Origin: Escherichia phage vB_Eco_K-02
Sequence record: PQ436005.1
Strand: one strand, 5' to 3'
DNA: 44,896 nt
Positions within the stretch are counted from its first letter, which is position 1. Each line of letters opens with the position of its first letter. Of the stretch, positions 10,315-10,382 are shown piece after piece. The notes beneath the pieces were generated by a model. That model did not search any database, was not told the DNA's origin, and saw nothing but the letters and a program-made list of their open reading frames with translations. A program made the position numbers and the translations under genes.

Positions 10315-10340
10315 GTGTGAATAGTACCATATTAATTATT
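10315..10340 (-). promoter_or_regulatory. conserved box copy upstream of the XRE regulator gene (putative promoter/operator)
   Basis: gtgtgaatagtaccatattaattatt; minus-strand TGG-TACTAT extended -10-like element; weak -35. Confidence 0.35.
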
Positions 10341-10353
10341 TTAGAAAAGCCCA

Positions 10354-10382
10354 TTGACATGTGAATAGTTCGCTATTATAGT
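10354..10382 (+). promoter_or_regulatory. sigma70 promoter with conserved box in spacer (TTGACA-N17-TATAGT)
   Basis: -35 TTGACA 10354..10359, 17-nt spacer TGTGAATAGTTCGCTAT, -10 TATAGT 10377..10382. Confidence 0.55.

Follow-up and report, generated by a model that had tools for sequence, protein, structure and literature searches.

Dimers of the Cro protein of phage 434 bind 14-bp operators in which the outer bases are conserved and the centre is uncontacted, and phage 434 gathers six operators (OR1-3 and OL1-3) at two loci. A second arrangement is represented by the C1 operators of phage P1 and the 'stoperators' bound by gp71 of mycobacteriophage L5, where one repressor acts at many dispersed short sites and the units are controlled together. 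Both P1 and L5 are truly temperate and maintain a prophage, whereas the Kagunavirus family is regarded as virulent.

The element described here, from the genome of Escherichia phage vB_Eco_K-02, has features of both arrangements. As in phage 434, a 14-bp dyad keeps its outer half-sites and varies in its centre, and the putative operators overlap promoter cores; the candidate reader is homologous to 434 Cro along its full length, and two of the operators lie between the regulator gene and a divergent operon, the weaker one on the regulator's own promoter. Unlike in 434, at least nine single operators are spread genome-wide, morons included, neither a cI partner nor an integrase is present, there is no sign of lysogeny in 5,426 complete E. 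coli genomes (see below), and the half-site reads AATAG rather than ACAA. The likeness to the P1 C1 and L5 gp71 networks lies in a single repressor that would be served by many copies of one site; in contrast, the P1 and L5 sites are asymmetric, their repressors are unrelated proteins, and the L5 sites act on elongation inside transcription units. In kind, the element is an ordinary Cro-type operator regulon, with a layout that is unusually dispersed, genome-wide, one copy per promoter and inclusive of the morons.

The motif itself has been published before. In Kagunavirus fBC-Eco01, PHIRE returned seven copies with the consensus tgAATAGTa-ccTATTat-T, which were ascribed to a phage RNA polymerase (PMC9825357), and in Jerseyvirus SGP-C TAATAGTACCCTATTATGTT is listed as a conserved regulatory element (PMC8790156). 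The Golestan paper lists seven PHIRE promoters, and the GenBank record of phage Jersey annotates several box sites simply as sigma70 promoters. The fBC-Eco01 and SGP-C motifs are the same sequence as the present box, listed there without analysis, and both papers are silent on the dyad, its variable centre, its dual orientation, the sigma70 hexamers and the Cro-like protein. A literature search returned nothing on the dyad, on operator-like conservation or on a link to the Cro homologue, and no transcriptome literature for Kagunavirus or Jerseyvirus was found. The motif sequence is already published and functionally uncharacterised, and its phage-polymerase label is contradicted by gene content.

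The window, that is, the whole 44.9-kb stretch of DNA that was analysed, is an essentially complete Kagunavirus (Guernseyvirinae) genome with about 97% identity over 9 kb to Escherichia phages vB_EcoS-phiEc3 and vB_Eco_K-01. Its gene map was taken from the K-01 annotation. Small genes, lysis genes and terminase form a leftward block; replication and recombination genes (helicase-primase, exonuclease, ssDNA-binding protein, DNA polymerase, methyltransferase, helicase) form a rightward block; and the structural genes lie in a leftward block that short rightward islands break up. The annotation of the 97%-identical K-01 genome contains no RNA polymerase gene, and all its ORFs longer than 400 aa belong to replication, packaging or tail, except one 472-aa protein of the tail module. 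The K-01 record (PQ435593.1) leaves the XRE gene unannotated, though it is 100% identical, and calls a 45-aa ORF on the strand opposite to it (loci 11168-11380 and 11278-11415); small ORFs are also called across the promoter regions of boxes 2 and 7.

A sequence-only reading of the window had described eight copies of a 24-bp promoter/operator box, and all eight are present. The motif scan corrects the copy number to nine full copies and a degenerate tenth: the ninth (17060-17083) lies in a TTGACG-N17-TATAGT promoter and overlaps the last codons of the VRR-NUC gene, and the degenerate member lies at about 2428-2461 on the minus strand. The coordinates given for the five plus-strand copies were exact, while the three reverse copies were 1-2 nt off and belong at 30407-30430, 39642-39665 and 41802-41825. 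The eight original copies are intergenic as described, including that first placed at 41801, because the head-morphogenesis gene truly starts at the ATG at 41750. Allowing up to three mismatches, the 23-nt consensus finds four matches against 0.00 expected. A position weight matrix built from the eight sites scores them at 27.8-38.9 bits, compared with 11.1 for the next best match and a maximum of 14.7 in 20 shuffles, a test that is partly circular. An independent test is provided by the bare dyad AATAG-N4-CTATT, already recognised as a partial dyad in the box, which with at most one mismatch occurs 11 times against 1.22 expected and is thus enriched; no shuffle out of 100 exceeded five matches. 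All sites and accompanying features are collected in Table 1.

Table 1 Operator-like boxes, candidate regulators and neighbouring elements in the window.
Feature	Coordinates	Strand	Sequence elements	Unit driven or setting
Box 1	5501..5532	-	dyad 5503-5516 (AATAGTAGCCTATT); TTGCAC 5532-5527, N17, TACTAT 5509-5504	leftward small-gene/lysis operon
Box 2	6625..6656	-	dyad 6627-6640; TTGCAC 6656-6651, N17, TACTAT 6633-6628	leftward operon, start 6602
Box 3	10318..10341	-	imperfect dyad 10320-10333 (AATAGTACCATATT), overlaps TACTAT 10326-10321; no -35 match (CTTTTC)	sits on the XRE gene's own promoter
Box 4	10354..10385	+	dyad 10364-10377 in spacer of TTGACA-N17-TATAGT (10354-10382)	rightward operon from 10411, exonuclease included
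Box 5	13291..13322	+	dyad 13301-13314 in spacer of TTGACA-N17-TATATT (13291-13319)	operon of ssDNA-binding protein and DNA polymerase
Box 6	17052..17083	+	dyad 17062-17075 (AATAGCGAACTATT) in spacer of TTGACG-N17-TATAGT	17114, methyltransferase and helicase; overlaps VRR-NUC 3' end
Box 7	30399..30430	+	dyad 30415-30428; TTGCAC 30399-30404, N17, TACTAT 30422-30427	tail-module island: superinfection-immunity gene, DNA-repair exonuclease, PNK
Box 8	39634..39665	+	dyad 39650-39663; TTGCAC 39634-39639, N17, TACTAT 39657-39662	small membrane-protein moron (ATG 39690) and 39788-40132 ORF
Box 9	41794..41825	+	dyad 41810-41823; TTGCAG 41794-41799, N17, TACTAT 41817-41822	moron 41851-42135; cassette missing from phage K-01
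Degenerate tenth	2428..2461	-	TTGACT-N17-TATATT; imperfect dyad ACTAG-TTGA-CTATT over the -35; right-half box sequence CCCTATTATATT at the -10	
XRE protein	10074..10289	-	71 aa, HTH_3	phage 434 Cro homologue
HTH_17 protein	7071..7241	+	56 aa, excisionase/MerR-like	first gene of the HTH_17-primase operon
Non-coding element, copy 1	6826-6973	+	~148 nt	co-oriented with the HTH_17-primase operon
Non-coding element, copy 2	39429-39575	+	~148 nt	
Perfect 16-bp palindrome	39566-39581		AACTATTCGAATAGTT; half-sites everted (CTATT-CG-AATAG)	3' end of copy 2, ~70 bp upstream of box 8
int-alpA RNA match (RF02996)	30316-30380	-	36.6 bits, gathering score 35.8	leader of the tail-assembly-chaperone/tape-measure operon, directly adjoining box 7
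Bidirectional terminators	32874-32893, 40205-40225, 42140-42159		GC-rich hairpins with T-runs on both strands	ends of the rightward islands
10-mer CAACGGCAAC	6669, 9596, 12725, 16155, 17195, 27737, 35079, 35950, 39894	both		

Two elements make up the 24-bp box: a 14-16 bp dyad, (T)AATAG-N4-CTATT(A), and sigma70 -10 and spacer sequence. As had been described, the boxes overlap sigma70-like promoters; each lies inside the promoter core. Eight of the nine promoters carry both hexamers (TTGCAC, TTGCAG, TTGACA or TTGACG, N17, then TACTAT, TATAGT or TATATT), and the XRE promoter has the -10 only. Five promoters have the form TTGCAC/TTGCAG-N17-TACTAT and lie on the complementary strand of the written box, one fewer than the six first described, the exception being the XRE gene's own promoter, with CTTTTC in the -35 position. 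The class in which the box forms the spacer does exist, with three members rather than two and with TTGAC(A/G) in place of TTGACA; these TTGAC(A/G)-N17-TATAGT/TATATT promoters lie on the same strand as the box. All nine are followed by a ribosome-binding site and a co-oriented start codon 20-60 nt downstream. The boxes stand in sigma70-type promoter cores that head putative early, replication and moron transcription units, which supports this part of the sequence-only reading.

The position of the dyad within the promoter differs between these classes. In the TACTAT class it spans approximately -19 to -6, with the right half-site within the -10 (six promoters) and the left half-site in the spacer; in the TATAGT class it spans approximately -25 to -12 and is nearly all in the spacer; and in one orthologous Jerseyvirus promoter it spans -22 to -9. 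The promoter core is overlapped in every register seen. Relative to transcription, six copies of the dyad point one way and three the other. The half-site centres are 9 bp, or roughly a helical turn, apart, and the dyad extends to TAATAG-N4-CTATTA in Jerseyvirus and at box 6. The functional unit is the 14-16 bp dyad; what is left of the box belongs to the promoter and varies with promoter class and genus.

The two boxes beside the XRE gene had been described as flanking it, which does not hold: both lie in the 121-bp intergenic region between the XRE gene (start 10289) and the divergent gene (start 10411), one within each of two divergent promoters, with the same box orientation and with dyads 44 bp apart. 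These dyads are spaced by 44-45 bp in Kagunavirus loci and by 55 bp in Jerseyvirus, and both genera have an imperfect operator on the promoter of the XRE gene itself. Box 3 is probably an autoregulatory, weaker operator.

The conservation of the dyad was followed in loci around XRE homologues drawn from IMG/VR, together with several complete genomes; a pattern scan of IMG/VR with 14 specified bases returned mostly chance matches and was useful only for finding loci. Multiple perfect dyads are present in all 36 Kagunavirus and all 14 Jerseyvirus loci, and the degenerate tenth member is kept in both genera. No perfect dyad was found in six Cornellvirus loci or in 25 more distant XRE-bearing loci, a single 1-mismatch match in one Cornellvirus locus being at chance level. 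A de novo search for repeated boxes in Cornellvirus VSiP yielded terminators as the only repeats, so this outgroup is without the system, which limits covariation tests. At three orthologous promoters, located through their downstream context without use of the dyad, the half-sites are perfect in 29/32, 23/25 and 14/15 distinct sequences (66/72 altogether), and the remaining six have a single mismatch each. Across the 46 loci of the best-sampled class, which come from two genera, the half-site columns do not vary at all, whereas variation amounts to 10-40% in the central columns and to 10-60% in those upstream of the -35. The centre at one orthologous site reads cgaa, cgag, caga, cgga, caca, ctag or cggg. 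The dinucleotide 5' of AATAG is TG at most Kagunavirus sites and nT in Jerseyvirus, the base adjoining the left half-site (G in Kaguna, T in Jersey) being the only one that differs there.

Sigma70 makes no base-specific contacts at -25 to -21 or at -19 to -15, the positions taken by AATAG. The symmetry, the free centre and the shifts in register, at bases that sigma70 does not read, suggest a dimeric DNA-binding protein that would act by occlusion; the occurrence of both orientations and of three offsets from the -10 likewise fits occlusion and not face-specific activation. Together, these patterns are those to be expected of the operator of a dimeric repressor and not of a recognition sequence of RNA polymerase. 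The earlier proposal of a single regulator is upheld insofar as invariant half-sites around a variable centre in two genera strongly point to a dimeric, sequence-specific factor, with the amendment that its unit would be the dyad and not the 24-bp box. An RNA hairpin was also considered as an explanation of the dyad and rejected: the dyad lies upstream of the inferred transcription starts, and its arms are invariant and show no covariation.

The same conservation bears on an explanation that needs no dedicated regulator, in which a family of strong promoters has been spread by duplication or gene conversion, or is kept alike by a spacer preference of RNA polymerase or a host factor. The overlap of the box with the -10, where the right half-site forms part of TACTAT in six promoters, speaks for this explanation, the moron copies could travel with their promoter cassette, and PHIRE-type tools call the motif merely a 'phage promoter'. 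However, AATAG is invariant across two genera in positions outside the sigma70 contacts, while the four central bases, the bases by the -35 and the promoter register all change; the dyad occurs in both orientations relative to transcription, and an asymmetric polymerase leaves its symmetry unexplained. We know of no enterobacterial factor with an AATAG-N4-CTATT site, and we consider this explanation quite improbable.

Specialised transcription machinery provides a further pair of explanations, namely promoters of a phage-encoded RNA polymerase or loading sites for a Q/AlpA-type antiterminator. The former corresponds to the PHIRE output, in which seven copies are called 'phage-RNA-polymerase-specific promoters' (PMC9825357), but the missing enzyme effectively refutes it: the 97%-identical annotated genome has no RNA polymerase gene. 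In addition, the hexamers are canonical for sigma70, the motif is inverted in three of nine promoters and its core is symmetric. We rejected this candidate on its missing polymerase gene, its sigma70 hexamers and its two orientations. An antiterminator site could account for a dyad placed between the -35 and the -10, as Q- and AlpA-binding elements are, and for the several intrinsic terminators inside operons. In P. aeruginosa, however, the site of AlpA is an asymmetric 6-mer with an obligatory -10-like pause element, and the protein is larger, with a C-terminal HTH at about residues 128-142. Here, the 56-aa HTH_17 protein, whose label 'AlpA-like' had prompted the comparison, is without similarity to solved Q or AlpA structures, and no conserved -10-like element follows the start sites. 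Because Q and AlpA systems depend on such a protein and such a pause element, this candidate was rejected as well; we regard a role for either type of machinery as very improbable indeed.

The best candidate for the reader of the dyad is the XRE protein. Its alignment with 434 Cro extends over the full protein (E = 5e-7, query residues 6-68), with the 434 repressor and P22 C2 as next-best matches, and two boxes lie in its own divergent upstream region. A survey of 20 small early ORFs turned up no further protein with a recognisable DNA-binding domain besides XRE and HTH_17. The XRE recognition helix (VSQGAINQLALG) is unchanged in 35 of 36 Kagunavirus loci and in variants of 78-87% identity; the homologues found in an indexed protein search were all Guernseyvirinae-like (78-99% identical), and this helix is shared by the seven that were retrieved. 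The regions upstream of distant XRE homologues are mostly uninformative, with the exception of L175, an unrelated small viral contig. There, at about 1877-1977, two TAAAG-N4-CTTTA 14-bp dyads lie 46 bp apart upstream of the gene for an XRE homologue of 45% identity, with the 5-4-5 architecture and the spacing of boxes 3 and 4. Counting against XRE, the Kaguna and Jersey proteins are about 51% identical and their helices differ at four of nine positions (SQGAINQLA vs SQSLITHLA) although the half-sites are identical, and the Jersey helix is nearer the Cornellvirus helix (TQSAISHL) than Kaguna's, although Cornellvirus, with an XRE orthologue present, is without the dispersed boxes.

This pattern in Cornellvirus is accounted for more readily if the dyad is read by the HTH_17 protein, which would act on the box promoters either as a repressor or, as a regulator of middle genes, by remodelling them. 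HTH_17 is undetectable in complete Cornellvirus genomes, which likewise have no boxes, so that the phyletic pattern of the box fits HTH_17 better than XRE; its homologues (442 phage records) are limited to box-bearing genera, the gene is 77-79% identical between Kagunavirus and Jerseyvirus, and its helix is nearly unchanged (GVTRQTINNW vs GVTRRTLNNW). Its position as the first gene of the primase operon, behind an apparent promoter that by eye is box-less, also speaks for it. Within Kagunavirus, however, HTH_17 identity ranges from 64 to 100% while the boxes are constant, and in two loci (L135 and L149) a clearly different helix, GVS(T/P)MTLNRW, accompanies half-sites that are unchanged at all six sites. 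The closest solved relative is a monomeric phage excisionase (4j2n), found only weakly (E = 0.08). Proteins of the excisionase class usually bind direct repeats and not 5-4-5 palindromes, which counts against HTH_17 as well. Moreover, the spacers already have the optimal 17 nt, leaving no role for spacer remodelling of the MerR type, and no box lies near the gene for HTH_17 itself. On this evidence, HTH_17 appears the weaker, second candidate, disfavoured relative to XRE, and as reader of the dyad we consider it unlikely. On balance, the most likely reader is XRE, followed by HTH_17 and then by some unrecognised factor.

As a plausible mechanism, in which our confidence is moderate, a palindromic operator in nine sigma70 promoters, plus one degenerate member, would be read by the Cro-like XRE protein and would switch the non-structural units off together. 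The operator-bearing promoters head all recognisable non-structural units but one, the HTH_17-primase operon, where inspection by eye showed only a candidate promoter lacking the box. The units so controlled would be two leftward small-gene/lysis units, the XRE gene, three rightward replication/recombination units and three antisense islands in the structural module. Being near consensus, the promoters need no activator and should fire on entry as strong constitutive promoters. XRE would meanwhile be made from its own weak promoter, and as it accumulates, a dimer of this phage protein would contact the half-sites in adjacent major grooves and occlude the -10 and spacer from RNA polymerase, thereby turning the box promoters down together, the XRE promoter included through its weaker, imperfect operator. 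The motif, its dyad, the promoter context, the conservation pattern and the Cro homology are direct observations; binding by XRE, repression rather than activation, and the timing are what we infer from them. Against this mechanism counts the position of the two leftward box promoters ahead of the lysis genes, since repression of both would throttle these genes too. The packaging genes might be throttled as well unless late transcription comes from another source; no good sigma70 late promoters were found ahead of the structural operons.

Each rightward island within the leftward structural block is ended by one of the bidirectional terminators of Table 1, and since such a two-way terminator closes each of them, an island consists of a box promoter, one or more genes and a two-way terminator. 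At the island of box 7, the leader of the neighbouring operon contains a match to the Rfam int-alpA RNA whose score is just above threshold. The region upstream of box 8 belongs to a repeated non-coding element, of which the two copies are 78% identical and share the orientation of the HTH_17-primase operon. The element closes with an invariant hairpin, AAGCTC-loop-GAGCTT, followed by a U-run, and has an internal hairpin whose sequence differs between genomes while the stem is kept, with compensatory changes in three alignment pairs. It occurs in about half of the Kagunavirus loci, with one weak match in phage Jersey at the position of copy 2, matches no Rfam family, and may be a small RNA or a leader/attenuator. 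Another repeat, the 10-mer of Table 1, occurs nine times against 0.09 expected, sense and antisense within genes and once intergenically, with no extended consensus; it is enriched in phage K-01 too, and a shorter form is enriched in Cornellvirus VSiP.

With regard to life style, none of 5,426 complete E. coli genomes matched Kagunavirus DNA. The sole match in a plasmid record, CP088689.1 (44,086 bp, from a human blood isolate of E. coli), is 93.5% identical to region 9000-12000 of the window and is evidently a Kagunavirus genome assembled together with that of its host, pointing to a carrier state or to contamination. Because no complete genome matched and the 'plasmid' is a phage genome, a classical prophage immunity role for the repressor is unlikely. 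In Jerseyvirus SGP-C, one paper claims unstable lysogens with superinfection immunity. One Cro-like repressor with at least nine dispersed operators could gate all the non-structural units, morons included, and also underlie the non-integrative carrier state and superinfection immunity claimed for SGP-C, a larger scheme that we put forward as speculative and rather unlikely.

These findings correct a published mis-annotation, that of phage-polymerase promoters in a phage without the polymerase, and they offer a compact candidate repressor-operator pair together with strong promoters that would be of use for engineering. The presence of the operator in the moron cassettes suggests that these are tied into the control circuit of the phage and not independently expressed. 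Phages of both genera, the K1-capsule Kagunaviruses and the Salmonella biocontrol Jerseyviruses, figure among the therapy candidates isolated most often, and their 'transcriptional repressor' gene has repeatedly been raised as a safety question. With the regulon defined as a 16-bp operator, nine to ten promoters and a Cro-like candidate reader, this question becomes directly testable. If the larger scheme were true, the 'repressor' would be a genuine immunity function without an integrase in phages that are treated as strictly virulent, and a phage family with such a circuit would already be in use in therapy and biocontrol.
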